A stretch of 64,000 nucleotides of DNA from an uncultured Gammaproteobacteria bacterium (GCA_964345045.1 CAYFPM010000001.1:44215-108214), one strand, 5' to 3'; positions 18,101-63,842 are shown, counted from the first letter of the stretch. The notes: generated by a model not told the origin, from the letters alone. Translations and numbers: made by a program.

Positions 18101-18125
18101 AGACTAAACGTCTATTTTTTATTTT
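18101..18125 (+). terminator. intrinsic terminator after TA pair
   Basis: gtagactaaacgtctatttttt. Confidence 0.5.
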
Positions 18126-18132
18126 ATTAAAA

Positions 18133-18161
18133 TTGACAGAAAGGGTTTTTAAAGGTATGTT
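18133..18161 (+). promoter_or_regulatory. sigma70-like promoter TTGACA-17-TATGTT driving GC-rich gene 18222
   Basis: ttgaca gaaagggtttttaaagg tatgtt; RBS aaaggaaaaacc before ATG. Confidence 0.5.
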
Positions 18162-18221
18162 GGATGTACCAAAATTTCGTTCTTTTTACTTTTTTAGAAA
18201 AAAAAGAGAAAGGAAAAACCG

Positions 18222-22785: not shown

Positions 22786-23415
22786 ATTGGTCAAACAAAA
22801 AAATTCGACTTAATTAGTCGAATTTTTTGTTGTCTTGTTTTTTGTGATAAGCCGAATTTTGTACTCAGGCAAGCTGAGTGATGATCATTTCTCTAGCCAG
22901 TACATTGCTGTACTGATCATAACGAGCTAACTTATCACCAATGCGAAGCATTGGCGCTGCTCTTTCTCTAGGTAGGGTTTACCACGCTCTGGTGTCACCA
23001 CCAGAGGAGTATAGTAGCTTTTGCCAATTGAACAAAAACTTCCATACACTTTTCACCTTTCACCGACGCTCCGCATCGGAAGCTCCAATAATCAAGTTTC
23101 AAGAGACAAATTTGTAACTTGAAATTTTTGATTTGGAATTTCCAATGCGAAGCATTGGTTAGTATAGTCTCTGCGGCACTATCCCGCTCTATACCTCGCA
23201 GCATAGAGGGTGGGTGTTACCCACTACCAGGACCGACGCTCCGCGTCGGAAGCATTGGTCAGAGTTCGGACTTTCCTCTCCGACGTGACGTCGGAGCGAT
23301 CACCTACAAAGAACAAGACCAAGAAAATATAGCATAAAAATGGCGGATTGTCAAGGTAAATGAGTTGTTTTTTGGCTAAATTATAAGGGGGAAGTCTTCT
23401 AAAGGATAGGGGGTC

Positions 23416-32869: not shown

Positions 32870-35014
32870 ATGCCAAAAAGTAATAAGAACAAAACAAAAA
32901 AGACCAAAGAAAAAAATGAAAAACCAGAAGAGATAGAAAAAGAAATGGTTGTAGATGAAAAAGAAGTCGCTTTAGAAGAGGATCATGTTTTTGTAAAAAA
33001 AGAAATTACCAAAGAAGAAAATTTGGAAGATATAGAAGATAAAGAAGACAAAGTTGCTGCCGTTACTTATAATTCTATAGACGAAGCTGAAACTAAGGTT
33101 AATGAAGATTCTGGCGTGGTGGAATCCGTCTCTGCTAAAGGGTCTGCTGAGGTGAAACCCGCCGTCGCTCGTCCTGAGGCGAGCTATGGCGTGGTAAAAG
33201 AGAAAAAGAAAAAAGGAAAAAGAAAAAATACAGACAAGGAAAAAATAGATAACAAAATTACAGAAATATACGAAAATGCCGATGGCAGTATGCCAGATAT
33301 GCAGCATTTTCAAAAAAGAAAAAGAAATAAGTTCTTATCCGCTTTGTTAACATTGTTTGGTTCGATTGGACTTTTGGCCGTGGTTTTTTGGGTGGTGTTT
33401 TTTGTTTTTCAAACAGAAACTTCTTTTTCCGAAGAAGATGTAATATTGTCTATCTCTGGAGAAGAAACTGTGGTAGTTGGCGAAGAATTAACTTATAGAG
33501 TTAGATACCGCAATGCCCAAAATACCAGCTTAAAAAATGTAGTTTTGCAGGTACATTATCCAGAAGGTTTTGTTTTTGCAAAAAGTAGCTTAGAACCAAC
33601 GGGAGAAAACAATGATAAATGGGATTTGGCTAGCTTGTCTGGGCAAGACAGTGGCTATATAGATATTTCTGGTCGTATGTATGGTAGCTTGGATCAAAAA
33701 CAATCTTTTCGAGCATTTTTAAATTATACTCCGGAAAATTTTAGCTCAGAATTTCAAAAGGCAGATACAGTAGCAGTTGGTTTTGATGAAATACCAATTG
33801 ATTTTGTAATAAAGCATCCAGAAGAAGTGATAATAGGTAGTGAAGTAGAAATAGATATCACAGCTGATTTGCTTTTGGATGAGCCAATAGAAAATTTGGC
33901 TATAGAAATAGAAGATAATAATATTTTTAATAAAAAAAGTAGCAGTTTGGAGAGTGACCAATTTGAAGATTTTGTTTGGTCTATTGCAAAGCTAGAAGAT
34001 GAATTTAATCTAAAAGTAACAGGTTCTTTTGCCAAAGATACTAATGAAAAAACAAATTCGATAAAAGTAAAATTGATTGGCTGGAAAGATGCTGACAAAA
34101 CTATAGAACCATATATATACGCAGAGAAAGATGTAGAATTTAATTTTTTGGAAACTAATCTATCGGCTAATTTGGTGATAAACGGAGCTACCAAAGAATT
34201 AAATGTAGAGCCTGGAGAAACTTTGAACAGTAGTGTTATTTTGAAAAACGCTGGAGACACTCCGCTCAAATCAGTAAGCGTTAGAACTGTCTTTGACGCA
34301 CCTTCGGCAAACAAAAAAAGTATTTTGAATTGGTCGGAAATTTTGGACGAAGCAGATGGAGATATTGTAGGAGAACAACTAAATAATGAAACTAGACGAG
34401 GTATAATAGCTTGGGATAGGGGGGAGATACTGGATTTGCGCCAATTGGATCCTGGCGAAGAATTGATTATAGATTTTTCACTACCAATAAAATCTTTTGA
34501 AAACACTGATTTGAGTAAATTTACTACTACCAATATAGAAGCTACCTTGGAAGTGCAGTATGAATTAGAAGGAGAACCAAAAATATACTCTTCGAACCCA
34601 ATTAAAATGAAGCTTAATTCGGATACAGAGTTTGAAGTGAGGGATGAAATTGGAGAAAAGAAAGGTAAAGAAGTTCATACTGTGACTTGGTTACTTACCA
34701 ACAGATTTCATGAATTATCGGATCTAAGGATAGAGGCGGATATCTACGGTGACGTATCTGTCGACAAAAATAAAATAGATGTTCCGGCCGGGGAGATTGA
34801 GTATGATAACGAAAATAAAAAATTGGTTTGGACAATCGAGTCTATGCCAGTGAGTTTGGATGTACTTGCTTTGCAATTTGATATTGTAATCAATGGCACT
34901 AATCCTAGCCAAACTAATCTAACTTCAAAAGTTTCGGTGCAAGCCACAGATGTTATTTCTGGAGAGAGAGTGGTAGAAGTGGGAGATGAGATTTTGTTGG
35001 GTTCGGGGGAGTAG
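32870..35014 (+). CDS. cell-surface protein with Lys-rich N-terminus, TM anchor and DUF11-like beta repeat domains
   Basis: KKTKEKNEKPEE..., TM LSALLTLFGSIGLLAVVFWVVFFVF, repeated VxGEELTYRVRYRN / ILKNAGDTPLKSVSV units. Confidence 0.45.
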   Translation: MPKSNKNKTKKTKEKNEKPEEIEKEMVVDEKEVALEEDHVFVKKEITKEENLEDIEDKEDKVAAVTYNSIDEAETKVNEDSGVVESVSAKGSAEVKPAVARPEASYGVVKEKKKKGKRKNTDKEKIDNKITEIYENADGSMPDMQHFQKRKRNKFLSALLTLFGSIGLLAVVFWVVFFVFQTETSFSEEDVILSISGEETVVVGEELTYRVRYRNAQNTSLKNVVLQVHYPEGFVFAKSSLEPTGENNDKWDLASLSGQDSGYIDISGRMYGSLDQKQSFRAFLNYTPENFSSEFQKADTVAVGFDEIPIDFVIKHPEEVIIGSEVEIDITADLLLDEPIENLAIEIEDNNIFNKKSSSLESDQFEDFVWSIAKLEDEFNLKVTGSFAKDTNEKTNSIKVKLIGWKDADKTIEPYIYAEKDVEFNFLETNLSANLVINGATKELNVEPGETLNSSVILKNAGDTPLKSVSVRTVFDAPSANKKSILNWSEILDEADGDIVGEQLNNETRRGIIAWDRGEILDLRQLDPGEELIIDFSLPIKSFENTDLSKFTTTNIEATLEVQYELEGEPKIYSSNPIKMKLNSDTEFEVRDEIGEKKGKEVHTVTWLLTNRFHELSDLRIEADIYGDVSVDKNKIDVPAGEIEYDNENKKLVWTIESMPVSLDVLALQFDIVINGTNPSQTNLTSKVSVQATDVISGERVVEVGDEILLGSGE

Positions 35015-35032
35015 AGTTTTAAAAAATAGATC

Positions 35033-35065
35033 AAAAAACCACCACAGTAATGTGGTGGTTTTTTG
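35033..35065 (+). terminator. intrinsic terminator
   Basis: aaaaaaccaccac agtaat gtggtggttttttg. Confidence 0.7.
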
Positions 35066-35175
35066 ATCTTGCCGTTTCGTTTTGTTGTGCGAAACGGCTC
35101 TCCTTGGTTGGGTGATGAATGAGTCTCTGCGGGTAAAAAACTTGATTTTGCTACGACAGTAGAGTCAGACAAAAT

Positions 35176-37761
35176 CTAGATTAGTTTTTTTGATCTGAGT
35201 TTTTGTAGCCGGTCTCTCGCGAGTTTGCCATCCCTGGCCAGTTTACGCTGTCGGGATAGCCAGCTTGTTGAACCGTTGTCTAGTTTCCCACTAGATTCTA
35301 GGCCAGTAAGCAATTCTTGGTATCTTTGATCCCAGCTCTTTTTGGTTTTGCCCCAATCGAACTTTAGGAGATCAAGTTTGCGTACTCGTTCCTTAGAAAG
35401 TTTCCCTTTTCTTCTTCTTACTCTTTGTTGGGCTACCCATGTCGCAAGAGTTTGGTCTTCGTAGAACCTAGTAACCTTGCTGTGACCGTTAGCCTTGAAG
35501 AATGCTGAAAGGATATCGTATGATTCTTCCCAGCTCCTTTTGTCTCGGTACTTCCAACGCAGGCCAATATCGCACAAAGCAACATAGCGTTCGCGAGGTA
35601 GAAGACCTCTAGTGTGACGATCTCTTTGGTAGTTGATCCATCTGCTCAGAGAGTAATTGTCAGGATCCCCAAAGGGGACGTTGCAATCCCCATATTGCTC
35701 CTTGTAGGCGAGCAATTGACCAAACATTTCATCCCAGCTCGAGGTCAACTTGTCTACGCATCGTGTTGTGATCGCGTTACGCAGCAACTCGAGGTCGATC
35801 CCATCAGCTCCAATCACGTCGACTATATCCGCATCGTTGACGTGGTCTTTGCCTTGGTCTCCATTGCTCCCACGTTCACCTCGCTCCTGGCGGAGTCTAG
35901 TGATTTTGTGGGCCATGGCCTCGTCTTGCTCGCGCATGGCGTTGAGCACAGCCCAAACCTCGCGGAAGTCTGCACGCTGCACAGCGTCCTCGATGGATTC
36001 GTCCTCGTGTTGTTCCACATATAGCGGCACAAGAATATAGCCCTTTTTCTTGCCGTTGGCTCGGCGCATGGCTCGGCCAGTAGCTTGGACAATGTCGATG
36101 AGACTACGCTTTTTGGTGAAAAACGCGACCAAATCGACCGTAGGTACGTCCACACCCTCGGTGAGACATCGGGCGTTCGAGATTACTGCTCGCGCAGAAT
36201 GTCGGAAGCCTTGCATCTCTTCTTCGCGCACTGCTGTCGACATATCGCCGTTGACATTGTGGACTGTGAAGTCGCTGGGGATATGGGGAGCCACCGAACG
36301 TGGTCCATCACCAGTGAAAGCCTGGGCATCGACGACGTTGGCATGGAAGGAAAACACTTTGCCTACGCCGTGGCGCTCGATTGCCTTGGCTAGTGAGATC
36401 CAGTTGGCCGCCTCACGCGCCTTGACTCGTACCCCGTCACCCATGTCTACGAAGCCCTTCTCGATATTATCAAGCATCCCGCTTGTCACCACCGACACAA
36501 CGACTTCGTAGTCGCAGATAATGCCTTCGGCAACTGCATCTCGGAAATTCATCTGGTACGCGGTCGGTCCGTAGATTTCTTCATCGTCCATCGAATAGAC
36601 GAGTCTAGCTTCATCATCGTCCTTCTTACTGTCGGGTATATCCCAATGTCTGGGGGTTGCCGTCCAGAAAGTTCGAATGATGATTGGTAGATTCTCGTCT
36701 TCGAGCGCGAATGCGAATTGCCCGCCCTTCTGGGTAGCTGTCTTGTGTGCTTCGTCAAAAACGCCGAGTTCAAAGACGTGCTTCCCACCCATCCCCTCGG
36801 CCACAATCGGTGCCGAGTGGTAGGTGGTGAAAATAATCTTAACCCCATGAGTCTGTGATGCAAGGAATGCAGAAACCGCTGCTGCCTCGTTGGTTACAGG
36901 GAAATCGAGTTCGGTTTGTCCGATCTCGAATTCATGGACACCTTCTGCAACAGTTCGATCCGAACACACGCATAGGAAACTAGGTCGCTGCCAGCTGGTA
37001 TGCTGGAGCCACTCGTGCAGAGTTTGGCGAACTAGTGCAAGTGACGGCACGAGAACTAGGATGCTCTCGACGCCGAGTTGCTCGGCTACAAAAAGCTGAG
37101 TGGAAGTTTTGCCCGTGCCACAGGGCATGATGATTTTCATCCGAGGTTTGTTTTGTGTCACCACCAGGTCACACACATTGTCGCAGGCTTCTTGCTGGCG
37201 TGGCATTGGCTTACGGAGGGTCTTGGCAACTTTGGGTTGCTTTCCGGCAATCCAAGCTCCAATCGCTCGGAGGTTGTCCCGCGTCAGGCGGCTCAGATCT
37301 TTGCCCGAGACTACGTAGATCGATTTAGCTAATCCGTCGATCTCTTCTGGGATCATTTCGACGTTGGTGAAAAGTACATGCGTGCTTCCCCCTCCAACTG
37401 AGAAGAACGGGGTGAGCGCTTCGACGTCTATCTCTTCAGTCTTGTCGCAGAACAACGAATGGTAAACTTGGAGCTCGCCAGTCGCAGTTTCGATGACCCC
37501 ATCGATCAGGTGCGAGTGTAGCCGGAATGTAGCAAAGCCTCGAGGTGCCTGCGTCTCAACCGACCATACCCTCTTGGCTTGTGCCACGGGCATGACAGTG
37601 AGATAGGCTTGCGCGAAGACCATGAAGGCTTCCATGCGCTCTTCTGGATTTTTGAGTCGCGCGATTTTTCGTTCGATCTGCCGGAAGGTGTTGGCGTTTT
37701 CGTAGATACCCATGCGGTTGAAGGTTGCTGCCTTCGGATGTCTGATTGTCTTCAAAGCCAC
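35176..37761 (-). CDS. superfamily-2 DEAD/DEAH-box helicase with C-terminal helicase-associated (HA) domain repeats; GTG start; high-GC island
   Basis: MPCGTGKT Walker A, FDEAHK motif II, QATGRAMR motif VI; repeated W..F..L..Y....G..NVP / L..W...QR C-terminal modules. Confidence 0.7.
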   Translation of the reverse strand: MALKTIRHPKAATFNRMGIYENANTFRQIERKIARLKNPEERMEAFMVFAQAYLTVMPVAQAKRVWSVETQAPRGFATFRLHSHLIDGVIETATGELQVYHSLFCDKTEEIDVEALTPFFSVGGGSTHVLFTNVEMIPEEIDGLAKSIYVVSGKDLSRLTRDNLRAIGAWIAGKQPKVAKTLRKPMPRQQEACDNVCDLVVTQNKPRMKIIMPCGTGKTSTQLFVAEQLGVESILVLVPSLALVRQTLHEWLQHTSWQRPSFLCVCSDRTVAEGVHEFEIGQTELDFPVTNEAAAVSAFLASQTHGVKIIFTTYHSAPIVAEGMGGKHVFELGVFDEAHKTATQKGGQFAFALEDENLPIIIRTFWTATPRHWDIPDSKKDDDEARLVYSMDDEEIYGPTAYQMNFRDAVAEGIICDYEVVVSVVTSGMLDNIEKGFVDMGDGVRVKAREAANWISLAKAIERHGVGKVFSFHANVVDAQAFTGDGPRSVAPHIPSDFTVHNVNGDMSTAVREEEMQGFRHSARAVISNARCLTEGVDVPTVDLVAFFTKKRSLIDIVQATGRAMRRANGKKKGYILVPLYVEQHEDESIEDAVQRADFREVWAVLNAMREQDEAMAHKITRLRQERGERGSNGDQGKDHVNDADIVDVIGADGIDLELLRNAITTRCVDKLTSSWDEMFGQLLAYKEQYGDCNVPFGDPDNYSLSRWINYQRDRHTRGLLPRERYVALCDIGLRWKYRDKRSWEESYDILSAFFKANGHSKVTRFYEDQTLATWVAQQRVRRRKGKLSKERVRKLDLLKFDWGKTKKSWDQRYQELLTGLESSGKLDNGSTSWLSRQRKLARDGKLARDRLQKLRSKKLI

Positions 37762-37782
37762 TGCTCCTTAGAGTCAAAAATG

Positions 37783-37845
37783 TTGTGGTTTCAAATTTCT
37801 CGCCACCTACGCAAATCGCAGGTAGATAAGAAATTTGAAACATTT
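37783..37845. promoter_or_regulatory. 13-bp inverted repeat gtttcaaatttct...agaaatttgaaac in helicase upstream region (operator candidate)
   Basis: perfect 13-bp arms around a 29-nt spacer that itself contains cctacg...cgcaggtag palindrome. Confidence 0.4.
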
Positions 37846-38070
37846 TAAAGAACATCAAATGGCCACAAATTTGAATTTGTGGAACAATCTAAATTAGCTT
37901 ATTTTAGCGAATTTGTCAAGGTTTTTTATTAATTTTGTTTAAGCAAAAAAAAACGCTTAAATAAAGCGTTTTTTTATTTGTGCTTCCGGAGGGAATCCCA
38001 GCCTTCGGCTGATGACCCGTAGGGTCAGAACCCACATGGATGGTTCTCTCGATGAATGATTTTCTGTTTG

Positions 38071-51778: not shown

Positions 51779-52156
51779 ATGGAGGGGAAGTTTTTAAAAT
51801 TGAATGATCTAAATGTTTACAAGGTTTCTTTTCATCTCTCTAATTATGTTTGGAGGGTTGTTATAAAATGGGACTATTTTTCTAAGAAAACCATTGGAGA
51901 TCAGCTAGTCAGATCAATTGATTCTATATCGGCCAATATTGCAGAAGGTTTTGGTAGATATGGGAAAAAGGATAAGATTAAGTTTTATAGGTACTCGATG
52001 GGTTCTATCAAAGAATCCCAAGATTGGATACAAAAAGCTTGGATTAGAAATATTATTGAAGAAAATGAGTATAATCACATAATATCAAAGCTTAATGATT
52101 TGCCAAGAGAACTGAATCATCTGATTAAATTTACAAATGAGAAATTAACAATTTAG
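51779..52156 (+). CDS. four-helix-bundle protein (23S rRNA IVS-protein-like family)
   Basis: SISANIAEGFGRYGKKDKIKFYRYSMGSIKESQDWI. Confidence 0.65.
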   Translation: MEGKFLKLNDLNVYKVSFHLSNYVWRVVIKWDYFSKKTIGDQLVRSIDSISANIAEGFGRYGKKDKIKFYRYSMGSIKESQDWIQKAWIRNIIEENEYNHIISKLNDLPRELNHLIKFTNEKLTI

Positions 52157-52829: not shown

Positions 52830-53186
52830 ATGCAAGATTATCAAAAATTATTGGTTTGGAAAAAAGCAATGGAATTGGTTTCATTGACTTATAGACTGGC
52901 GAAACTATTTCCAAAAGAGGAAATATTTGGTTTAACTAGCCAAATGAAGCGTTCTGTTGTTTCGGTGGTAGCAAACATAGTTGAAGGTAGGGGCAAAGCT
53001 ACAGATAAAGATTTTTTAAAATTTTTATATATTGCCAATGGATCTTTGAACGAAACTAGGTGCTATTATGAAATTGCCCTAGAACTTGAATTTATAAATG
53101 ATGAACAATTTAAATTTGTAGATGAAAAACGTAAGGAAGTGGGATATCTACTCCAAAAGCTAATAAAATCAATCCAAAAAGCCTAG
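52830..53186 (+). CDS. four-helix-bundle protein (second paralog)
   Basis: SVVANIVEGRGKATDKDFLKFLYIANGSLNETRCYYEIA. Confidence 0.65.
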   Translation: MQDYQKLLVWKKAMELVSLTYRLAKLFPKEEIFGLTSQMKRSVVSVVANIVEGRGKATDKDFLKFLYIANGSLNETRCYYEIALELEFINDEQFKFVDEKRKEVGYLLQKLIKSIQKA

Positions 53187-53984: not shown

Positions 53985-54274
53985 CAGCAAGTCTCAACCT
54001 AGGATCAATTCCATTACCACCATTCCTATATACATTTTTTTACAAAGTGTATAGAGACAATGGAAAAATTTAAAACAAATTATGAATTTAAATACTTATA
54101 CATATTATTATTTGCTTCCACTAGCCAAGTGAGAGTAGTTTTGTTTTTTTGCAAAAACACTCCTTGGCTAGGGGTGTTTTTGTTTGTGGGTTGCCAAGAG
54201 ATTTTAAATAGTTTAAAGTCTGCTGGGGATTCTGCAAGGAGAATTTCTCCTGCAAAAAAGGAAGGAGGAATCCT

Positions 54275-54451
54275 ATGTCGAATACGTTTCAGGTCGAGGG
54301 GCACAAGCGCTGCGTGGTCAGCATCGTTGGATCTGCGGATCTGGGGGTGCCTACCGAGATCAAGTGCCTGGACTGTGGAAAGAAGGGGAATGAGGCTCAG
54401 CTCGAGGTCGAGCCCTGTCGAGAGGTCTCGAGCGAAGACGAAGCCGCTTGA
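54275..54451 (+). CDS. small (58 aa) Cys-containing acidic protein, GC-rich
   Basis: strong RBS aaggaggaa; C..CLDC..C pattern; followed by hairpin terminator 54488-54520. Confidence 0.4.
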   Translation: MSNTFQVEGHKRCVVSIVGSADLGVPTEIKCLDCGKKGNEAQLEVEPCREVSSEDEAA

Positions 54452-54586: not shown

Positions 54587-55723
54587 ATGAAACTCAATAG
54601 CAAAATAAAAAATTTAGCAGAGTCTGCTACTTTGGCTATAAATAACTTGGCTTTGGAAAAAAGAAAAATGGGGGAGCGAGTTTTTAACTTGGCTGCCGGT
54701 GAACCTATGGTAGAAACTCCAGAGGTAGTGATAAACGCCGCCACCAAAGCCATGAAAAATGGCAAAACACACTATCCTCCAGTTTTGGGGATTCCAGAAT
54801 TACGGACTGCTGCCGCAGAGTGGATAAACAAAAATTACCAAACCAATTTTACTACAGAAGAAACAATTGTTACCTGCGGCGGCAAACACGCTCTGGCTAT
54901 GACACTAGAAGCCATTTTGGATCCGGGAAACGAAGCTATAATAATTTCTCCATATTGGGTGTCTTATCCAACTATGGTAGAAAAAAATGAAGGAGTAGTT
55001 AGAATTGTAGAAACGCAAGAAAAAAATAATTGGAAAGTTAAAATAGAAGATTTGGAAAAAAGTTGTACAGACAAAACCAAAGTTTTACTTTTTAACAATG
55101 CTGCCAACCCTACCGGAGTGCTTTATGAAAAAAATGAAGTGGAAGCAATTTTAAAATTTGCCAAAGAAAAAAATATAATAGTTATTTCGGACGAGGTTTA
55201 TAGTGGATTAGTTTATGATGATAAAAAATTTACCTCGGCCGGAAGTTTTGCCGAACACAAAAATAATGTTGTAATTATACAAAGTGCTTCCAAAAGTTTT
55301 GCTATGACGGGGTGGCGAGTTGGTTTGGTATTTGGGGAGATAGAATTGATAAAAGCCTTAAAAAAATTACAAAGTCAAACTACCAGTGGAACTAGTAGCA
55401 TAAGTCAGTGGGCCGCTTTAGCCGCTTTGCAAAATTCAGAAGAGATAACTAAAGAGCTTAAAAAAGAAATGCAAAAAAGAAGAGATTTTTTTGTAGATAA
55501 TTTTTTTACGGAAATAAACAAACCTCAAGCTGGTTTGTATAGTTTTATATCTTTGCAAAAATTTGGCATAGAAAATAATAACTCTGTAGAATTTTGCAAA
55601 AAAGTTTTGCAAGAAAAAAATATTGCCATGGTTCCGGGAGCTCCGTTTGGGGCAGAGGGGTTTGTAAGAATTTCTTTTGGGGTGGAGATTGAGGAGTTGA
55701 AGGGAGCTTTGAGTAGTTTGTAG
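54587..55723 (+). CDS. class I/II pyridoxal-phosphate aminotransferase (aspartate aminotransferase-like)
   Basis: NLAAGEP..., SASKSFAMTGWRVG PLP-lysine motif. Confidence 0.85.
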   Translation: MKLNSKIKNLAESATLAINNLALEKRKMGERVFNLAAGEPMVETPEVVINAATKAMKNGKTHYPPVLGIPELRTAAAEWINKNYQTNFTTEETIVTCGGKHALAMTLEAILDPGNEAIIISPYWVSYPTMVEKNEGVVRIVETQEKNNWKVKIEDLEKSCTDKTKVLLFNNAANPTGVLYEKNEVEAILKFAKEKNIIVISDEVYSGLVYDDKKFTSAGSFAEHKNNVVIIQSASKSFAMTGWRVGLVFGEIELIKALKKLQSQTTSGTSSISQWAALAALQNSEEITKELKKEMQKRRDFFVDNFFTEINKPQAGLYSFISLQKFGIENNNSVEFCKKVLQEKNIAMVPGAPFGAEGFVRISFGVEIEELKGALSSL

Positions 55724-55895: not shown

Positions 55896-56097
55896 TTGAC
55901 ACTCTTTTTCAAGAGGCATATACTAAAAGTGATCCTGGCAAATTTGGACGAATATTCATATTCTACAAACTAGCTATTATGGAATACCTATATCGTCTCG
56001 ATCCGTGGATTGAGATTGCGGTTATCCACCTATTTTATAGGGATAGCGAATAACGTCCGGCTTGGATCATCAAAAAACAGCTAAAAGGCTGTTTTTT
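55896..56097 (+). promoter_or_regulatory. promoter (TTGACA-17-TATACT) + 24-codon ORF MEYLYRLDPWIEIAVIHLFYRDSE + intrinsic terminator, followed by second promoter TTGATT-16-TAGTAT at 56110-56137
   Basis: same promoter/short-ORF/terminator layout as the three downstream attenuators, but peptide not strongly biased (3 Tyr, 1 Trp). Confidence 0.35.
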
Positions 56098-56167
56098 GTT
56101 TTTTCTATTCTTGATTTTTTATCAATTTATGCTAGTATCAATTTCGCAACAACGGTGTTGCTAAAGA

Positions 56168-57772
56168 GTGAGGTTTGTCGTGAAAGTTTTGAGAGAAGTA
56201 GCAAGTGATATTGGTGGGCTCGTTTCGGTGGTGAACCGTGATACGGTTCGCCAATTCGCGCCGAACGATGGCGGCAATGTGTCGCCTATCGCCATGGAGT
56301 GGAGTTCCTTCTTGAGAGGGACGAGTGCCGACCAGGACTTGATCAAGCTGTGTAAACGTAACCAGGTGTGGCAAGTCATCGTGGTCACGCTCCCCGTGAA
56401 TACCTCCTACCTCGAGTTGGTTCGGGGGAGCGAGTTCGAGGGGGCTGACGTCGAGGAAATCTCCAATATGAATGGTGGGTTTGTCCACTACGTCCTGGTT
56501 CGGGCCAACGAGGGGCCGGCCGGCCCCATGAGCGTGGCAATCGGGGGCGATTGCCTGCGCCCAGAGGCCACCTTGACCGAGGTGTTCGAGAGAGCCTCGC
56601 TCTTGGCCACGGCCATGAGAGCAAAGGCCAGGTCGTTTTTGCCCAGTATGCCCGGCTTCCACGCCGGCAAAAAGGGAGCCCTACTCCTCGTCGACCGAGA
56701 TGGCGAGCGCGTGGTGCTGAGCAATCCCTCGGCCATGGCACTCTCGGCACCGGCCATGGTGCTTGGAGTGGGGTTTGCCAACCGACTACGCGTAGAGAGC
56801 TGTGCTGCTTGGGCTAGCCGCTATCGACTACCGCTCGGGGTTTTGTCTCCGGATTCTCTCTCCCCGGACGTGGTTACGGGAGGAGGGTGGACTCGGCTTG
56901 CCCAGGCATTCCGCTACTACGGGCTTGACTCTCGTATGGCCACCTGCCAGCCGGGCAAGACGCCGAATCCCTCGTCGGTGCCCACTGGCCAAGGTGTAGC
57001 CACGGCTGCTCTAGAAGTGGCCAAGTGGCTGCGGGAGTCGGGTAGAGTCCCGCAGGGCGAGCCGATTCGGGTGCTTGTCGAGGCTGCTGGCGCAGTGACG
57101 CAGGGCATGTTCCCACTGCTGCTAGAAGAAGGATTGGTGAAACCCGAGTACCTCACCTTCTACGACCCTAGCAGAGAGGCGATCGCCGTGATCGAGGCTC
57201 TGGTACCCGGCTGCCAAACGCTCTGTCGTTCGAACGATGTGGCACTCAGCAAGTTGGCCAACAAGACCTTCGATATCTTGATCAACAATGGCCTGGGCAA
57301 CCACTTGGGTACGCCAAAGCATATGGAGCACTTGGGAAGGATGGTTAGGTCTGGAGGACAGTTGGTGGTCTTGGGTGGAGCCAACAACATCATCAAGTGG
57401 GACAACCCGGCACTCAACTTGCCTCTCGTCATGGCTGAACGAGGAATTCAGGTGATCCCCGATACGGCTGTGTCGGGCGGTGGTTGGACCTTGGCCTTGG
57501 CTGGCCAAGCTGCCGAAGTGGCCGGGGTTGACCCGAGCAAATTGGCCAACCCGGTCAGTTCGTTTGTGTGTCGCTCGGTCTCGAGGAGAATTCAATCTGC
57601 CCTTGTCGCCTTCGGCGAGGGTGGTGGCGACCACCTCTGGAAGATCGTCTCGGAGCAGATGGAAGAGGCCGCTCCGTCGCTCGACCTGGTTCTCCCCGAG
57701 GACGAGTGGGCGGCGGCTGTCGATCCGAGAGACTTCCTGCGAGCGATAGGTGTGTCGCTCCAGGGCGAGTAG
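56168..57772 (+). CDS. Glu/Leu/Phe/Val-dehydrogenase-family (amino-acid dehydrogenase-like) protein, highly divergent; alternative GTG start 56180
   Basis: VVLGGANNIIKWDNPALNLPLVMAERGIQVIPDTAVSGGGWTL aligns with family block EGANGPTT..A..IL.ERGI.V.PDILANAGGVTVS; canonical GxGxxG replaced (VEAAGAV). Confidence 0.45.
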   Translation: MRFVVKVLREVASDIGGLVSVVNRDTVRQFAPNDGGNVSPIAMEWSSFLRGTSADQDLIKLCKRNQVWQVIVVTLPVNTSYLELVRGSEFEGADVEEISNMNGGFVHYVLVRANEGPAGPMSVAIGGDCLRPEATLTEVFERASLLATAMRAKARSFLPSMPGFHAGKKGALLLVDRDGERVVLSNPSAMALSAPAMVLGVGFANRLRVESCAAWASRYRLPLGVLSPDSLSPDVVTGGGWTRLAQAFRYYGLDSRMATCQPGKTPNPSSVPTGQGVATAALEVAKWLRESGRVPQGEPIRVLVEAAGAVTQGMFPLLLEEGLVKPEYLTFYDPSREAIAVIEALVPGCQTLCRSNDVALSKLANKTFDILINNGLGNHLGTPKHMEHLGRMVRSGGQLVVLGGANNIIKWDNPALNLPLVMAERGIQVIPDTAVSGGGWTLALAGQAAEVAGVDPSKLANPVSSFVCRSVSRRIQSALVAFGEGGGDHLWKIVSEQMEEAAPSLDLVLPEDEWAAAVDPRDFLRAIGVSLQGE

Positions 57773-57899
57773 AGCGACTGCCTGGCTCCGGCCCCTAGTC
57801 TCTTTTTAGGCCAGGCGCGACACCAATTTTTGTTCTTTTTTGTTGCGGCGAGCCTAGATTTTACCTTTGGTATATCTGGGCTCGTTGCACACACTCATC

Positions 57900-58059
57900 T
57901 TGACAAGAAGCAGAGATTTGTGTATATTAGTTTTAATCTTATGAAAACAAATATCCACAACTTCTTTTTCTTTTCTTTCTTTATCCCGCCAAAGAGTCGT
58001 GGTGTTTTGAGTTAATGCAAATTAAAATCAAGATTACCCCGACTCGTCGGGGTTTTTTG
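57900..58059 (+). promoter_or_regulatory. Phe-rich leader-peptide attenuator: promoter TTGACA-17-TATATT, near-leaderless ORF MKTNIHNFFFFSFFIPPKSRGVLS (57941-58015), intrinsic terminator 58036-58059
   Basis: 6 Phe codons in a 7-codon run (TTC TTT TTC TTT TCT TTC TTT); alternative pairing gagtcg(57998)/cgactc(58042) could act as antiterminator. Confidence 0.6.
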
Positions 58060-58167
58060 TTTATTCGGGTTTGGCGAAAGGTGATTAGACTTTTCGCTAA
58101 CCTCGAAGCCATAGTGGCTGAGGGGTTGAGACAATTTTTTCGCGAAAGCGAGAGAGGACAATAGACA

Positions 58168-59019
58168 ATGAAGAGTGAGCGAGAGTTTCTTGCCCAATAC
58201 ATGGACGGACCGGAGCATCGGCCAGACTGGGCTGGACATTCTGCGTTCGAGCTCGAAGGTCAGTTTGCCTTGCGTGGTGGCAATACCAACACCCAGCTGG
58301 TCTACCCGGTTGGACATTTGGTCTACAATGGCTTGATGAAAAGCTTCCCAAATGATCAGGAGCGCTTTAGCCCAGAGTTCAGCAACACTCAGGTGGAGCT
58401 GAACACCGGTGCTTGTGCAACCCCCGATCTGACGCTGGCAAAATTGCTCGAGCTGGTGGGGAAGATCAACCAGGTCGCTGGTCGTCACAACTTCCAGTTC
58501 GTGGATCACGAGTTCATCCCACTCAACGTGTGGGTTCCCGAGCAGGTATCACCGCTGGTGCCCCGCTACCAGCAGTTTGCCAACGATCCAGCCAACGTCG
58601 AGCGCGTGCCGCTGATGCACCGGGTGGCAGCGGCTCAGGTGCAGTGGGGCTGCGCCGATCCGGAGGAGCGTTTGGCACTCTTGAACGCCCTCACCACCGA
58701 ACTCGGTACCATGGAGAGCTTGGGATGGATCGACCCTGGTCGCAAGGCCGCGTTCGAAAAAATCCATGCCGGTTGGTACCCGCCTCCCTTCGACACTTGG
58801 AGTCGGTTTTACGAGTACATCCGAAGTCACCAAGATGGCGTGGCCATGATCGAGAGCCCGGCTCTGTACTACGCAGCAGTGCGTCCTCACCACGTGTACA
58901 GCACTGTCGAGCTCCGGCTCCCCGGCGCTACGCTCGATCCGGAGCGCTTGTTCCAGATTGTGTCGTTCGTGGCCGAGGTGTACAGCCAAGTCTGTAGGCG
59001 ACGTAGTGTAGCTGTCTAG
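58168..59019 (+). CDS. GCS2-family (glutamate-cysteine ligase family 2 / carboxylate-amine ligase) paralog, short form
   Basis: N-terminal AFELEGQ (E-x-E) and C-terminal STVELRLPGATLDPERL resembling YbdK TVEVRVMDTP block; middle HVHVG/LSAASP blocks not recognised. Confidence 0.4.
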   Translation: MKSEREFLAQYMDGPEHRPDWAGHSAFELEGQFALRGGNTNTQLVYPVGHLVYNGLMKSFPNDQERFSPEFSNTQVELNTGACATPDLTLAKLLELVGKINQVAGRHNFQFVDHEFIPLNVWVPEQVSPLVPRYQQFANDPANVERVPLMHRVAAAQVQWGCADPEERLALLNALTTELGTMESLGWIDPGRKAAFEKIHAGWYPPPFDTWSRFYEYIRSHQDGVAMIESPALYYAAVRPHHVYSTVELRLPGATLDPERLFQIVSFVAEVYSQVCRRRSVAV

Positions 59020-59136
59020 TCCCCCCCGAAGCATTCCTGCCCCACAAGAATGCTTCACCCCTTCCCTTTGTACAAAAATAATTTTGTATAGAGAAAAGAG
59101 GATTCTATTTTAAAAAGGAGATTATGCACATTTTGA

Positions 59137-59300
59137 TTGACAGGAAAGTAGAATTTGGATAATATCTAAATATTATGAAAAATAAGCGCAACATTCTGCT
59201 ACTAAGCCTGCTAGCTCTAGCCCCAGAGAGTGGTGATGTTGTGTTATCTGCCTAAGCAAAAACACATATTAGCAACACCGCTCATCTGCGGTGTTTTTGT
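59137..59300 (+). promoter_or_regulatory. Leu-rich leader-peptide attenuator: promoter TTGACA-17-TAATAT, leaderless ORF MKNKRNILLLSLLALAPESGDVVLSA (59175-59255), intrinsic terminator 59275-59300
   Basis: 6 Leu in 8 codons, four of them rare-looking CTA; terminator caccgc tcatct gcggtg ttttt. Confidence 0.6.
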
Positions 59301-59368
59301 TTACTTTGTCGAATTAAGCTTGGACTGAGTAGAGTAAAACTCATTCAGTTCAGACCGATTCTGACAAT

Positions 59369-60694
59369 TTGATTGGACGCTGCGTTGCAGCAAGGAGAGA
59401 AAGCCCCATGGCAACCCCGTGGACTACAGAAAACCTTCAAACCGCTGGCCGAGATGCACTTGCAAATTTGCTGGCGGAGAGTTCGCGAGCAGTTGCCAAG
59501 GCCTCAAATTCTGGTTGGATGGCTTTCGAGATGGAAGCCTCTCTGACCAAACTTCGCATTCCTGATTTGGCTGGGGTCTGGCCTGAAGTGAAGAGGGCTG
59601 ACGAGGTAGGTGTGGTCGTGGACGAGTTTCAAGACTACATGATCGAAGGCGTCCCTCCGCGTGACGCTGGAATCGTGGACGCGATGGGACTTCGTAGTTC
59701 GATCCTAGATGTAGCAGAGGCTATGGTCGCTGCTTGCGACAAGGCTGGCGTGCGCCTTACTCCCATTGCTCACCCTGATTCTTGGGGGGGGAAGCGGGAT
59801 ACCAAGATGCCTCAAAAGGCCGACCACCAGCGCATGGTTCGAGACACCATGCCGGCGGTTGGCTTGGGGGCTATTGGGGCCTCGCTCCAGCTCCACTGTG
59901 CCCACCCCTGCAACATCACCGAGGACAGATACTGGCGTACCCTCTTGCTCCTCCAGCAGCACGCGCCGCTCCTCTTGGCCTTGTCGGCCAACAGCCCCAA
60001 GAGCGGTAGCATGATTCATGGCAGCGTTCGGTATCTGCTTAGCCGATCGGTTTGGTCATTCCAGCCGTACTTCTGGCAGAGCTACGAAGAGTTCGTGGAT
60101 CATGTGCATGCACTTGTCCAGTACGGCAGCATCACCGGGCCGCACAACCTGCACGGTTGGGTCAAAGCCTGTGTCGGTTCGATCGAGCAACGTATCTGCG
60201 ACATTCCCGGTACTGTCCAAGAGATCTGGACGCTCTGTGCTCTGATGCGCGCTTTGGTGCAGTACTGCTACGAGCAGGCAGCTGACCCCAATGGATTCCT
60301 TCTTCAGGGAGATATTGGTCGTGATCAGCTGCTCTTGGCTCTGGAGCAGGCGGCCACCTTTGGCCTTTCCGACATGCAGGATTGCCGAATCCAAAGCCCG
60401 TGGGAAGGTCAGCGCGTCAAGCTCTACGATCTGTTCATGGAGCTCGGCAATCGCGTCGGAGATATCATGACGGATCAAGGGGCTGACTGGGAGAGGCAGT
60501 ACCTCTTCGAGCATATGCTCGCCGATCAGAAATGCGGCGAGAACGGAGCCACCCGGTTTGCGCGTTGGCACGAGCAGCACGACGGCAACATGACCAGGGT
60601 GGTGGAGGCCGCTAGCCGGCACTTCGGGCAGTCTCTCGGAGAGGCGAAAAAATCTCTGTCTGCGATGCAGCCAGATCAAGTCGTGAATCAATAG
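59369..60694 (+). CDS. GCS2-family carboxylate-amine ligase (glutamate-cysteine ligase family 2)
   Basis: LQLHCAHP (cf. HVHVG), LLALSANSPKSG (cf. LSAASPYMQG), SIEQRICDIPGT (cf. TVEVRVMDTP). Confidence 0.55.
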   Translation: MIGRCVAARRESPMATPWTTENLQTAGRDALANLLAESSRAVAKASNSGWMAFEMEASLTKLRIPDLAGVWPEVKRADEVGVVVDEFQDYMIEGVPPRDAGIVDAMGLRSSILDVAEAMVAACDKAGVRLTPIAHPDSWGGKRDTKMPQKADHQRMVRDTMPAVGLGAIGASLQLHCAHPCNITEDRYWRTLLLLQQHAPLLLALSANSPKSGSMIHGSVRYLLSRSVWSFQPYFWQSYEEFVDHVHALVQYGSITGPHNLHGWVKACVGSIEQRICDIPGTVQEIWTLCALMRALVQYCYEQAADPNGFLLQGDIGRDQLLLALEQAATFGLSDMQDCRIQSPWEGQRVKLYDLFMELGNRVGDIMTDQGADWERQYLFEHMLADQKCGENGATRFARWHEQHDGNMTRVVEAASRHFGQSLGEAKKSLSAMQPDQVVNQ

Positions 60695-60890
60695 TTCCTT
60701 TTGTGTAGTTAGCCATAGTTTTGGAGGCTGGCCCACTACACTCCCTTCCTTTTGCACAAAAGTTATTTTGTATAGAAGAGAGGTATAAATTAGTTTTCAC
60801 GCTGGCTCCATAGTCCCAGAGGTCTATGGAGCCAAATTGCCACAATACGGCTCCACAGGGCTACGCCACTATGGAGCCAGCATAGTAGTT

Positions 60891-60991
60891 CCTCCCCTAT
60901 AAGGGGAGGCTAGGTGGGGTCAAATCGTATACCAGACCCCCTCCCCGATGCTTTGATCGGGGCAGGCCAACTCCCCCTATTAGGGGGAGAG
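60891..60991. repeat. composite GC-rich palindromic element (CTCCCCCT-N4-AGGGGGAG family), long variant, just upstream of Ile-leader promoter
   Basis: cctcccctataaggggagg ... ggggtcaaatcgtataccagacccc ... ccccgatgctttgatcgggg ... ctccccctattagggggagag. Confidence 0.7.
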
Positions 60992-61009
60992 TTTCTGTCC
61001 ACAAAAACA

Positions 61010-61165
61010 TTGACATCCGCCTACAGCTCTGATAGGGTGAAGATAATATGAACAAACTATTCAACATTATTATTTGGATTATCGCCCAGTTTGGTGGTAA
61101 GTTTGTTCGTGAATAAAAATATTTACAACAAAAAATTACCGCCGGAGATGGCGGTATTTTTTTTC
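61010..61165 (+). promoter_or_regulatory. Ile-rich leader-peptide attenuator: promoter TTGACA-17-TAGGGT, leaderless ORF MNKLFNIIIWIIAQFGGKFVRE (61048-61116), intrinsic terminator 61136-61165
   Basis: 5 Ile in 7 codons; terminator taccgcc ggagat ggcggta tttttttt; RBS taggaagg before downstream gene. Confidence 0.6.
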
Positions 61166-61267
61166 TCGATCTTTGCAAACGTACTGGGTAGCACTGTGAT
61201 TACAAAATGTATTCAGAGTGGTGCCTAGTACCAAATTTTGTTTTTTGACAATGCAATATAGGAAGGT

Positions 61268-62617
61268 GTGACAATGAATCGGAAAATGAAAGAAGTTGCT
61301 CGTCGGGTCGCAGACCTGATCGAGGCGATGAACTACGCTGGACAGCGTGGGCTCCAGCTTGGGACAGAGCGAGAATTGGTAGCTGTGAAGGCCTCGAATC
61401 CTCGAGAGGTCGGAGGCTTTGCACTCTCTGTCGCCCAGAATCTCGCGACACAGCCAGGTTGGACAGCTGTCTACGACGGCACCACCGATCTGGTGGTTGG
61501 AGCCAAAAGTCCTGGTGGCGAGTACGAGGTCATGACCGACGCTGGCAAGTGGGTTCTAGAATACTGCCCGCTCGCACCGTGCGACTCTCTCAATAGTCTC
61601 GATAGGTTGTGTGGGGAGGCCGAGCGAACGATTATCTCGGCATCCCAAGGGCTTGGTTTCGAAGTTCTCGGTCTTGGGCGGCATCCGCTCTTTCTGGCAA
61701 ACCGGAGTAGCTGGACCCCAAAGCTGCGCTACAATGGTCTGCAGTCAGTTCTCAAGAACGGGGGCCACGAGACCTGCGAGACTGCTTCGCACCAAGATAC
61801 TGTAGACGTACGAAATTCGGGACACATGATGCAGGTGGTCAACATCGGCAACGCTCTAGCAGGTCCGGTTGCCGCTATCTGCGCCAACTCGCTAGTGTTT
61901 CACGGAGAAGTGCATCAAGATCAACTGGCCAGCCGGTTGCTGACGTGGCAAAGGATTTGCCACCCGGTACAATTCGCTCGAGTGGGTATCCCCATGGTCT
62001 TTCGGGACGTAGGGCACTACGCCGAATACCTGGTGCGTTTGCCGTACCTCTTCCACATTCACGAAACTGGTGTTGCCGACGTGTTCGACAAACCTTTCTA
62101 CGAAGCGGTTGAGTACTTCGAGAGCGTTGACTTCGGACGTTTGCTGCAGATTCACATGGCTTGCGTGTGGTTCGATGCTCGGGTACGCATGAACAAGTGT
62201 GCCAGTGTCGAGCTGCGAGCACCGTGTGCTCAGCCTCAAGGCATGGGTCAAGCGGTGTCTGCTCTACACCTAGGGCTGGTTCACAACTCGGCAGCTGCCA
62301 GCAACTTGGTGCTGACGCATTCTTGGGATGAGTGGCAGGCAGCGCGCTTCGATGCCGCCAATTTGGCACTCAACGCCAGCGTTGGATCTGAGCCTATGGC
62401 AGAGGTGGTCCGGTCTATGTTGCACGTGGCCGAAGATGGCTTACGCTTAGCCGGAGAGGACCCTACCAGGCTTGCCCCGCTGTGGCAACGACTCGAGGAT
62501 CCTTCTCAATTGCCAGCTATGATGGCCGGCAAGCTCTTTGTCGAGGGTGGAATAGATGCCTTGGTAGAGGCCAGGCGCTTCCAACTACAGCAAGAGCCAG
62601 TAGCTCGCGCTTCTTAG
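61268..62617 (+). CDS. GCS2-family carboxylate-amine ligase paralog
   Basis: LGTERELVAV N-terminal E-x-E, ICANSLVFHGE, ASVELRAPCAQP (cf. TVEVRVMDTP). Confidence 0.5.
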   Translation: MTMNRKMKEVARRVADLIEAMNYAGQRGLQLGTERELVAVKASNPREVGGFALSVAQNLATQPGWTAVYDGTTDLVVGAKSPGGEYEVMTDAGKWVLEYCPLAPCDSLNSLDRLCGEAERTIISASQGLGFEVLGLGRHPLFLANRSSWTPKLRYNGLQSVLKNGGHETCETASHQDTVDVRNSGHMMQVVNIGNALAGPVAAICANSLVFHGEVHQDQLASRLLTWQRICHPVQFARVGIPMVFRDVGHYAEYLVRLPYLFHIHETGVADVFDKPFYEAVEYFESVDFGRLLQIHMACVWFDARVRMNKCASVELRAPCAQPQGMGQAVSALHLGLVHNSAAASNLVLTHSWDEWQAARFDAANLALNASVGSEPMAEVVRSMLHVAEDGLRLAGEDPTRLAPLWQRLEDPSQLPAMMAGKLFVEGGIDALVEARRFQLQQEPVARAS

Positions 62618-62744
62618 TTCTTTTGCGGATCTCATCCATCCGCCTACTCCTTTTGTAGACGAAAAATCGTCTGCAAAAGAAGACTCTTAGCCAATTGACT
62701 AAGGGGAAAAATTTTGATATATTTTATTCCATTTATAAAAAATT

Positions 62745-63842
62745 ATGGACAATAATAAATTGGACGACATAGTAGCCTTAACCAAAAAATTGGTTCATTT
62801 TCGTGGTACCGAAAGTAGAGTAGAAAATCTTCGCCGTTGTGCAGATTTTATTGCTGATTATTTTATAGATAGTGGCCTTACAGTAGAGCGCTTTGAAAAA
62901 GATGGATACCCTTCGGTCGTAGTCACCAAACATGGCACCAAAAAACCCAAAATTTTTCTAAACGGACATTTTGATATGGTAGAGGGAGAAGATCACCAAT
63001 TTGATCCCAAAATAGAAGGAGACAGAATGTTTGGTAGGGGAGTGTTTGATATGCAAAGTGGCAATGCTGTTATTATGACATTGATGAAAGAACTAGCTCA
63101 TACCGAACACGATGTAGGATTAATGCTAACCGGAGACGAAGAAGCCGGTGGTTTTCGGGGTGTTGGTTATGTAATGGATTTTAACTATAGTTCGGATGTA
63201 GTAATAATTCCCGATGGTGGCATGGCCGTAGAAAATATTATAAGTAGAGAAAAAGGGATTATAAGATTTGATCTACAAGCTCATGGCAAAAGATCTCATT
63301 CGGCCTATCCTTGGCTTGGTGACAATGCTATTACCAAATTGATGAGTGGAATAGAAAAAACACTAGCTCTTTTCCCAGAATCAGAAAAAGATATAGAAGA
63401 TAATTGGACAACCAATGTAGCTGTAACCAAAATTAATGCTGGTATAGGTGGCAATGTAGTACCGGAAAAAGCCTATGCTCATTTTGATGTTCGTTATATT
63501 ACAGAGGACAACCCCGAAGAAATCTTGGAAAGAATTAGAAAAGTTTTGCCAGACGGAGTAGATTTAAAATTAGATTTTATAGAACCAGCTACCAGCACAG
63601 ATACTAGTAGTCCATATGTAGAAAAATTTGTCGAAACCCTAAAAGAGCACGACAAAGAACCAAAATTCATTTCGGCTATGGCGGCCTCTGATTCTAGATT
63701 TTTTCACGAAAGAGGCATTCCGTTTATCATAAGCCAACCAGAAGGTGGCGGACATCACGGTCCATACGAATGGGTAAGAGTTTCGGCAATTGGCAAATAT
63801 TACGATATACTAAAGTCATACCTAGATAAGGTTGCCAGGTAA
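62745..63842 (+). CDS. M20-family metallopeptidase (ArgE/DapE/dipeptidase-like)
   Basis: LNGHFDMVEGE and TGDEEAGG metal-ligand motifs. Confidence 0.8.
   Translation: MDNNKLDDIVALTKKLVHFRGTESRVENLRRCADFIADYFIDSGLTVERFEKDGYPSVVVTKHGTKKPKIFLNGHFDMVEGEDHQFDPKIEGDRMFGRGVFDMQSGNAVIMTLMKELAHTEHDVGLMLTGDEEAGGFRGVGYVMDFNYSSDVVIIPDGGMAVENIISREKGIIRFDLQAHGKRSHSAYPWLGDNAITKLMSGIEKTLALFPESEKDIEDNWTTNVAVTKINAGIGGNVVPEKAYAHFDVRYITEDNPEEILERIRKVLPDGVDLKLDFIEPATSTDTSSPYVEKFVETLKEHDKEPKFISAMAASDSRFFHERGIPFIISQPEGGGHHGPYEWVRVSAIGKYYDILKSYLDKVAR

Follow-up and report, generated by a model that had tools for sequence, protein, structure and literature searches.

A Probable Phenylalanine-Responsive Leader-Peptide Attenuator Upstream of a YbdK-like Carboxylate-Amine Ligase Gene in a Metagenome-Derived Bacterium

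Proposed Attenuator and Its Mode of Action

The stretch of DNA considered here (64,000 nucleotides, nt; below, the window, with positions counted from its first letter) was deposited as part of the genome of an uncultured Gammaproteobacteria bacterium (GCA_964345045.1, CAYFPM010000001.1:44215-108214). It carries a small unit that consists of a promoter, a mini open reading frame (ORF) with a run of phenylalanine (Phe) codons and an intrinsic terminator, and this unit stands ahead of the gene of a 283-amino-acid (aa) YbdK/GCS2-type ligase. In our opinion, the unit very probably controls transcription by ribosome-mediated leader-peptide attenuation, the signal being the supply of charged tRNA-Phe. 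The features by which this class of regulators is recognized were found in it, namely clustered codons for one amino acid, a terminator before the gene, an antiterminator that excludes the terminator and shows compensatory changes and, for the units of the window, a geometry that suits the ribosome footprint.

According to the proposed scheme, transcription would begin a few bases ahead of the ATG of a 24-codon ORF lacking a Shine-Dalgarno sequence. At plentiful Phe-tRNA, the ribosome would reach the stop codon (58013) and cover the segment of the leader RNA designated region 2; the terminator would then form, and the polymerase would halt before the gene. At scarce Phe-tRNA, the ribosome would be arrested towards the end of the FFFFSFF run, where it covers region 1 (57983-57992). 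Region 2 would then be free to pair with the 5' arm of the terminator, and with the 3' arm left partnerless the polymerase would read through into the ligase gene. If the ORF were not translated at all, region 1 with region 4 and region 2 with region 3 would form one long hairpin (or region 3 would pair with region 4 alone). Both structures have the U tract at their end, which would make termination the default state.

Descriptions of leader-peptide attenuation come almost wholly from cultivated bacteria, in which it governs genes of amino-acid biosynthesis and of tRNA synthetases. The mechanism proposed here is a textbook one, and it is the setting that is new: a probably near-leaderless start, attenuators of one modular design that differ in their codon runs, target genes for orphan carboxylate-amine ligases and a host that only metagenomes have revealed. 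Full-text searches of the literature gave no account of attenuators of this kind from bacteria of the candidate phyla radiation, a group to which the host may or may not belong.

Composition of the Phe Unit

The coordinates of the unit and of related features are collected in Table 1. An earlier examination of the DNA without database searches (the sequence-only reading) had placed a Phe-rich leader element at 57900-58059. All the parts do lie there, including the near-consensus promoter, the six Phe codons in a run of seven and the GC hairpin 20 nt past the stop codon (hairpin energy -10.9 kcal/mol), and the start of the ORF had to be corrected to 57941. The tract of seven T residues said to follow the hairpin proved to be T6 (58053-58058), after which come G and then TTT. 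The ATG is located 12 nt past the -10 hexamer. The spacing within the promoter itself recurs in the promoters found ahead of the orthologous leaders.

Table 1. Features of the Phe unit, its sister units and related leaders. Positions refer to the window unless another locus is named.
Feature	Position	Strand	Description
Sigma-70-type promoter	57900-57928	+	TTGACA 57900-57905, 17-nt spacer, TATATT 57923-57928; 11/12 consensus match
Leader ORF	57941-58015	+	MKTNIHNFFFFSFFIPPKSRGVLS; 24 codons, ATG 57941, TAA 58013-58015
Regulatory codon run	57962-57982	+	codons 8-14 TTC TTT TTC TTT TCT TTC TTT = FFFFSFF, 6/7 Phe
Region 1	57983-57992	+	AUCCCGCCAA; pairs with terminator 3' arm or region 2
Region 2	57994-58004	+	GAGUCGUGGUG; antiterminator 5' strand
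Region 3	58035-58045	+	UACCCCGACUC; terminator 5' arm and part of loop; partner is region 2 or region 4
Region 4	58047-58053	+	UCGGGGU; terminator 3' arm
Intrinsic terminator	58036-58058	+	7-bp stem ACCCCGA/UCGGGGU (58036-58053), loop CUCG, then U6
Conserved hairpin	58065-58107	+	UCGGG.UUGGC-GAAAGG...CUUUUC-GCUAA.CCUCGA; between terminator and ribosome-binding site of the ligase gene
Shine-Dalgarno-like site of the ligase gene	58150-58158	+	GAGAGAGGA; read from sequence
Putative controlled gene	58168-59019	+	283-aa short YbdK/GCS2-type carboxylate-amine ligase
Leu unit	59137-59298	+	promoter, ORF 59175-59255 MKNKRNILLLSLLALAPESGDVVLSA, terminator 59274-59295; ahead of 428-aa GCS2-like gene 59408-60694
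Ile unit	61010-61164	+	promoter, ORF 61048-61116 MNKLFNIIIWIIAQFGGKFVRE, terminator 61137-61156 and U8; ahead of 447-aa GCS2-like gene 61274-62617
Tyr unit	54082-54185	+	ORF 54082-54132 MNLNTYTYYYLLPLAK, terminator 54155-54179; just upstream of the GC-rich patch
Unit U1	55896-56098		promoter TTGACA, 17 nt, TATACT; ORF MEYLYRLDPWIEIAVIHLFYRDSE; constitutive 12-bp terminator
Ile leader in a relative	L252, 6646-6760		MKHKATHNIFISIICSINMR, terminator; ahead of 456-aa protein with weak ATP-grasp-type matches (CPSase_L_D2)
Ile/Leu/Val leader in a relative	L003, 1331-1470		MNRTNYRNLILVIVVILLGQGGSLSYLQA (run LILVIVVILL), terminator; ahead of 481-aa protein with weak PGM1_C match
Leader peptide of L002			MIQNLHNLFFFFFFTPQRVVVI
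Leader peptide of L004			MKTNRYFFFAFFFASAGGGLSRCA
Leader peptide of L005/L006			MSSSIRQSFFFFTPSGGSVV
Leader peptide of L123-L125			MRYLTTQCASFFFFALRRT
Leader peptide of L251			MKSILKQFFVLFIIMPASNRVIFCID
Leader peptide of L252/L253			MNTAHAQTISFILFPFFILKRW

AT-rich intergenic DNA is rich in promoter-like hexamers and T-rich ORFs, and a promoter scan of the region gave 12 sites against 3.8 expected, so the unit might have been nothing more than a T/C-rich stretch and a promoter-like site that happen to lie near the terminator of the gene upstream. When mini-ORFs of 8-40 codons with at least 5 identical residues in 7 and a terminator nearby were counted, 3 of them were found in the window, whereas the mean was 0.075 in first-order Markov simulations and none of the 40 simulations reached 3. 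Together with the seven orthologous loci and the significant antiterminator complementarity described below, this count effectively refutes chance, to which we ascribe a negligible probability.

Downstream of the terminator there is one more conserved hairpin (58065-58107). An RNAalifold prediction over eight loci gives it 16 pairs, of which 10 show compensatory changes, and its equivalents were found in five other loci (L002, L003, L004, L005 and L251; the labels are ours). This hairpin may serve to stabilise or process the RNA, or it may be a second site of regulation. At a position equivalent to that of the Shine-Dalgarno-like GAGAGAGGA, the ligase orthologues have GGAGG-type sites.

Alternative RNA Structures and Ribosome Position

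The leader RNA of about 130 nt has a calculated energy of -29.3 kcal/mol, compared with -18.3 +/- 3.0 kcal/mol for dinucleotide shuffles (z = -3.65; none of 200 shuffles reached this stability). Region 2 with region 3 makes up the antiterminator and region 3 with region 4 the terminator, these two structures being mutually exclusive. The pairing gagtcg/cgactc, which the sequence-only reading had put forward as overlapping the 5' arm of the terminator, was recovered as GAGUCG (57994-57999) complementary to CGACUC (58040-58045), and it runs on into GGUG paired with (U)ACC. The whole duplex of regions 2 and 3 has an energy of -10.9 kcal/mol, while shuffles give -5.2 +/- 2.2 kcal/mol. Region 1 also has two possible partners, since its AUCCCG pairs with CGGGGU of region 4 and its CGCCA with UGGUG of region 2.

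The position of the ribosome was modelled by a partition-function scan, in which a footprint of 28 nt was masked at each codon and the pairing probability of the terminator 3' arm was read out. Such a scan describes an equilibrium and takes the footprint as given; it shows that the geometry is right and not that the switch works. In the free RNA, the 3' arm is paired with a probability of 0.80, there within a long hairpin whose base abuts the U tract. With the A site anywhere from codon 15 to the stop codon, the small terminator is formed, and the probability is 0.94. It is 0.64 for an A site at F11, 0.43 at S12 and 0.20 at F13, so the 3' arm loses its partner only when translation is held up at the late Phe codons. 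Structure prediction, proposed by the sequence-only reading as a check on its claim, thus gave both the alternative pairings and a position of the ribosome that frees this arm. In the sister units of the window, which have runs of leucine (Leu), isoleucine (Ile) and tyrosine (Tyr) codons, the minima of the same scan are 0.35 at L13, 0.36 at I9 and 0.00 at Y10, respectively.

Conservation of the Leader

The 283-aa protein is rare: among 5.8 billion proteins, no word-indexed homologue but itself was found, and an exhaustive HMMER search of 1.84 billion representatives at E <= 0.001 gave 40 proteins, the query included. These matches are mostly 255-300 aa long and at most 35% identical to the query, the leader-bearing orthologues showing 25-35% identity. 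DNA was compared at eight loci (the window, L002, L003, L004, L005/L006, L123-L125, L251 and L252/L253). In seven independent loci, the window included, a Phe-run mini-ORF with a promoter and a terminator stands directly upstream of the short GCS2 gene. The one locus of the eight without the leader is L003, where the sequence ends 184 nt upstream of the gene.

The Phe run is the sole peptide feature common to the orthologous leaders, as the length and the other residues vary. Equivalent terminators are present in all the orthologues, and at each locus region 2 sits +4 to +16 nt past the run and is complementary to the 5' arm of its own terminator. The antiterminator helices differ in sequence from locus to locus (GAGUCG/CGACUC; GCGGUGG/CCACCGC; GGCGG-AGUGUU/AACACUCCGCC; GAGGCG/CGCCUC; GUAACCG/CGGUUAC; GGUGGUAA/UUACUGCC), and at each of them the duplex is stronger than in shuffles, the combined Fisher p being 2.3e-6 over the seven Phe leaders and 3.6e-12 when all 12 leaders are taken, those of the sister units and relatives included. 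The comparison of homologous loci, another check named in the sequence-only reading, therefore found the complementarity kept with different sequences. The same nucleotides, GAGTCGTGGTG, are present in the window and in L002, yet they are read as S-R-G-V in the former and as R-V-V-V in the latter, with an indel of 1 nt. An 11-nt region 2 that is identical in different frames indicates a constraint on the RNA and not on the peptide.

In L004, L123 and L252, the gene order is TGT, C39-like peptidase, leader and ligase gene, UvrD, NDK, while L251 has neighbours unlike these. Since the neighbours differ between loci, the leader travels with the ligase gene. Two pattern searches were also carried out. 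The pattern GAGTCGTGGTGN{15,45}CCCGACTC gave 116 matches over genome contigs, and the inspected ones were chance occurrences in GC-rich genomes, having no Phe run. At least 120 stretches of metagenome contigs contained the pattern CACAACYTCTTTTTCTTY, and among the matches listed none had the ligase or the build of the leader.

A short hydrophobic peptide encoded between a strong promoter and a terminator could also be the product of an independent small gene, such as a membrane peptide or a type I toxin, unrelated to the ligase gene. This is extremely unlikely, as the mini-ORF is tied to the same downstream family in seven loci with otherwise different neighbours, shows no peptide conservation beyond the run and has an antiterminator kept as RNA. 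Moreover, the promoter scan revealed no promoter-like site between the terminator and the ligase gene and no antisense promoter-like site opposite the Phe leader ORF, and the peptide of the Tyr unit, MNLNTYTYYYLLPLAK, is not membrane-like.

Sister Units and Other Leaders

Three AT-rich spacers of a GC-rich patch of the window (56-63 kb) each hold a unit composed of a consensus promoter, a mini-ORF without a Shine-Dalgarno sequence and a terminator, with runs of Phe, Leu and Ile codons. The Leu and Ile units stand without orthologue support, because no leader-bearing homologues of the proteins encoded after them were obtained: the word-indexed search with the 428-aa protein returned itself only, and the 447-aa protein has two distant homologues (P0048 and P0049), which are within operons of unrelated genomes and have no leader. 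The genes of the 283-aa and the 428-aa ligases are each followed, right past the stop codon, by a copy of a 34-nt repeat (CCCTTCC.TTTG.ACAAAA.T.ATTTTGTATAGA, at 59059-59092 and 60743-60776). The two copies are 88% identical and contain a small A/U hairpin; possibly, the repeat is a shared 3' element.

The Tyr unit is followed by a 58-aa ORF (54275-54451) and then by an aminotransferase gene (54587-55723). The 58-aa ORF is GC-rich and encodes four Cys residues and an acidic C-terminus (…SSEDEAA). It was considered as a LysW-like carrier protein, for which searches of Pfam, NCBIfam and PDB gave no support.

Two further leaders were found in relatives (Table 1), one with an Ile run in L252 and the other with a mixed Ile/Leu/valine (Val) run in L003. 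Judging by the matches of the proteins encoded next to them, they widen the link of such leaders to amide-forming ligases.

One more unit of the window, U1, has a similar outline with its promoter, small ORF and terminator. Its RNA of about 170 nt is strongly structured (-51 kcal/mol), and a 534-aa orphan protein (56168-57772) with a weak methyltransferase match only is encoded downstream of it. U1 has no codon run, no structure alternative to its 12-bp terminator and no Rfam match and, for the first two of these reasons, was not counted as an attenuator. U1 could be a leader of another kind or a small RNA.

Genes of amide-forming ligases directly follow the small ORFs (GCS2 in the window, proteins with weak ATP-grasp matches in L003 and L252), and in L004, L123 and L252 a gene of a C39-like peptidase adjoins the unit, which might suggest that the peptide itself is the product. 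It would then resemble the precursor of a ribosomally synthesized and post-translationally modified peptide (RiPP), be modified by the adjoining ATP-dependent ligase and be made in a ratio to this enzyme set by a leaky terminator. In RiPP clusters, precursor genes followed by partial terminators are common. We regard this explanation as very unlikely. No conserved core peptide is seen, the homopolymeric run alone being kept, and the 3' part of the ORF is preserved as nucleotides across different reading frames of the window and L002. Complementarity of this part to the terminator 5' arm at each locus would be needless for a precursor peptide, and the mini-ORF lacks a Shine-Dalgarno sequence. 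Finally, the residues of the runs (Phe, Leu, Ile, Tyr and Ile/Leu/Val) are hydrophobic ones typical of attenuators, whose side chains offer the ligase neither a carboxylate nor an amine.

Predicted Translation Start of the Mini-ORFs

In all 12 leaders, the ATG lies 9-13 nt past the -10 hexamer and has no Shine-Dalgarno sequence, unlike the controlled genes, which have GGAGG-type sites. If transcription is assumed to start about 7 nt past the -10 hexamer, the 5' untranslated region is as short as 2-6 nt. Judged by the promoter consensus, translation of the mini-ORFs probably begins at or very near the 5' end of the transcript.

A promoter and a terminator that delimit about 120 nt of stably folded RNA (the z value is given above), with a long polypyrimidine tract able to pair with GGAGG-type sites, would also be expected of a non-coding small RNA. 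Its C/U-rich tract would pair with purine-rich ribosome-binding sites, and the ORF would be incidental. However, the sister units with Leu and Ile runs are built alike and contain no polypyrimidine tract, the Leu run consisting mostly of CUA and CUG codons and the Ile run of AUU/AUC. In all 12 leaders, an ATG frame extends from beside the promoter through the run to a stop codon ahead of the terminator, and the fixed distance of region 2 from the run is the one that a ribosome footprint predicts. Such a small RNA is, therefore, highly improbable as the sole function of the unit. Released attenuator RNAs can act in trans (PMC6614838); should the terminated RNA have such a role, this would supplement the attenuator model without taking its place.

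Comparison with Known Systems

The sequence-only reading had likened the element to pheL of E. coli. This likeness holds for the function proposed, but not for the gene, which is neither pheA nor pheST, and not for the Rfam family. Like pheL-pheA and pheM-pheST (Rfam RF01859; Gurvich et al. 2011, PMC3082878), the unit of the window has a short ORF with an internal Phe run, an intrinsic terminator and an antiterminator that uses the 5' arm of this terminator. In both cases, proline codons (CCN) stand right after the run, and a stalled ribosome leads, or in the window would lead, to readthrough. The unit of the window differs from pheL and pheM in the absence of a Shine-Dalgarno sequence from the leader, with its ATG 12 nt past the -10 hexamer, and in region 1 being complementary to the terminator 3' arm as well. 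Its target is a YbdK-like ligase instead of chorismate mutase/prephenate dehydratase or Phe-tRNA synthetase, and its host is an uncultivated low-GC bacterium found in metagenomes only. The RF01859 (Phe_leader) model scored the unit at 27.1 bits, with E = 0.022 on 551 nt and 0.36 on 8.9 kb; gathering requires 55 bits, and homology to this family is not detectable. In this weak match, the order of the aligned elements (run, stem, terminator) is the expected one. No Rfam family reached its threshold at the locus, sister units included.

The branched-chain leader peptides leuL, ilvL and ivbL of Enterobacteria precede leu and ilv biosynthetic operons. The sister units and the leaders of relatives likewise have Leu, Ile and mixed Ile/Leu/Val runs followed by terminators, and their targets, in contrast, are GCS2-like or ATP-grasp-like ligases.

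The polycysteine "Cys ribulon" of mycobacteria (Canestrari et al., 10.1101/834739) resembles the family described here in having short sensory ORFs without Shine-Dalgarno sequences, codon runs for a single amino acid and several independent units per genome that share one sensed amino acid or one design. The mycobacterial ORFs stand at or near the 5' end, a position predicted for the present leaders from their promoters. The mycobacterial system masks a ribosome-binding site (10.1101/834739), whereas the unit of the window would switch a canonical U-tract terminator that lies about 100 nt ahead of the Shine-Dalgarno site. In addition, the family of the window is spread over several amino acids and not one.

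Several points weigh against the assignment of the Phe unit to the attenuators. It is founded on sequence, folding models and comparison. The transcription start is a prediction from the promoter consensus, and as the mini-ORF has no Shine-Dalgarno sequence, its translation would hinge on initiation at or near the 5' end. In the orthologous leaders L002, L004 and L005, the equilibrium scan shows only a small drop, with minima of 0.71, 0.85 and 0.68, respectively; these loci have stronger terminators, and their case calls for a kinetic, co-transcriptional argument. The Phe_leader model scores the Ile unit even higher (32.2 bits), which makes the match to it generic. Finally, the putative controlled gene is not among the known genes of Phe biosynthesis, transport or charging.

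Controlled Ligase and Its Neighbours

The 283-aa protein matches Pfam PF04107 (GCS2) with 30.8 bits at a cut-off of 21. The 428-aa and 447-aa proteins match the same family, and no mutual BLASTP similarity was detected among the three. In a search of PDB with the profile of the ligase family, the YbdK-type structures 1TT4 (4e-10) and 1R8G (5e-9) were found. The AlphaFold model of the protein has a predicted local distance difference test score (pLDDT) of 93.9 and a predicted template modelling score (pTM) of 0.90, and a Foldseek search with this model gave 1TT4 (E = 5e-10) and 1R8G (E = 1e-9), then a plant glutamate-cysteine ligase and glutamine synthetases. Thus, the ligase is similar to YbdK in both sequence profile and predicted fold. 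It differs from YbdK in being about 90 residues shorter (283 against 372 aa), the aligned core ending near residue 270, and in belonging to a rare clade of its own, that of the 40 matching representatives mentioned above. The residues E28, E30, E70, E77, R152, R192, R239, E248 and R250 are invariant in the family, and these Glu and Arg residues would fit an active metal- and ATP-dependent carboxylate-amine ligase.

M20 amidohydrolases are encoded near the unit in the window and in L003, a class-I amidotransferase/peptidase C26 in L005, in L252 and in the contig carrying P0011, and an aminotransferase in the window and in L123. These neighbours hint at amide or gamma-glutamyl chemistry. The idea of a cognate bias, that is, depletion of the Phe-controlled protein in Phe, was rejected, as its Phe content is 5.3%.

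Locus and Base Composition

The window is a part of the metagenome contig ENA ERZ930070 (116.9 kb), and the same proteins are also encoded in a 621-kb NCBI contig. The genome has about 36% GC, while the 56-63 kb patch is GC-rich (51-56%). Four large genes of this patch show a GC content at third codon positions of 0.60-0.71 against 0.28-0.44 in the neighbouring genes. Loci L002 and L004, with the same leader-gene unit, have 54-57% GC. The mosaic of genes and their neighbours suggests acquisition from a relative of higher GC content.

The base composition of the window as a whole is also mosaic, with patches of 48-56% GC at 56000-63000, 18000-19000 and 35000-38000. Nearly all its genes are on the + strand, and the GC skew is strongly positive. 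Two genes for four-helix-bundle proteins of the "23S rRNA intervening sequence" type (51779-52156 and 52830-53186) are situated on either side of the NDK gene. RNase P RNA of bacterial type A (142.8 bits) is encoded at 22832-23315 on the - strand; it has 484 nt against the 367 positions of the model, with several large insertions relative to the Rfam consensus.

Conclusions

The codon run of a leader would name the amino acid that is sensed and, for this reason, gives a rare and testable clue to the function of orphan families. In the window, Phe would in this way be connected with the short YbdK-like ligase, and Leu and Ile each with one of the two long GCS2-like ligases. The leaders could also provide compact, orthogonal amino-acid sensors.

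A wider interpretation, which we put forward only tentatively and consider possible though rather doubtful, is that the Phe unit belongs to a ribosome-read regulon of an uncultivated lineage with small genomes, made up of related attenuators that have almost no 5' leader, or none, and interchangeable runs (Phe, Leu, Ile, Tyr and Ile/Leu/Val). Each run would switch a different orphan ligase (short YbdK-like, long GCS2-like or ATP-grasp-like), which would act on the sensed amino acid or recover it. If this is true, the regulon would correspond to a route of amino-acid salvage or conjugation not described before, possibly with the participation of the M20 amidohydrolases, the C26-type amidotransferase and the aminotransferase, and the leaders would serve as built-in substrate labels for unannotated enzyme families.

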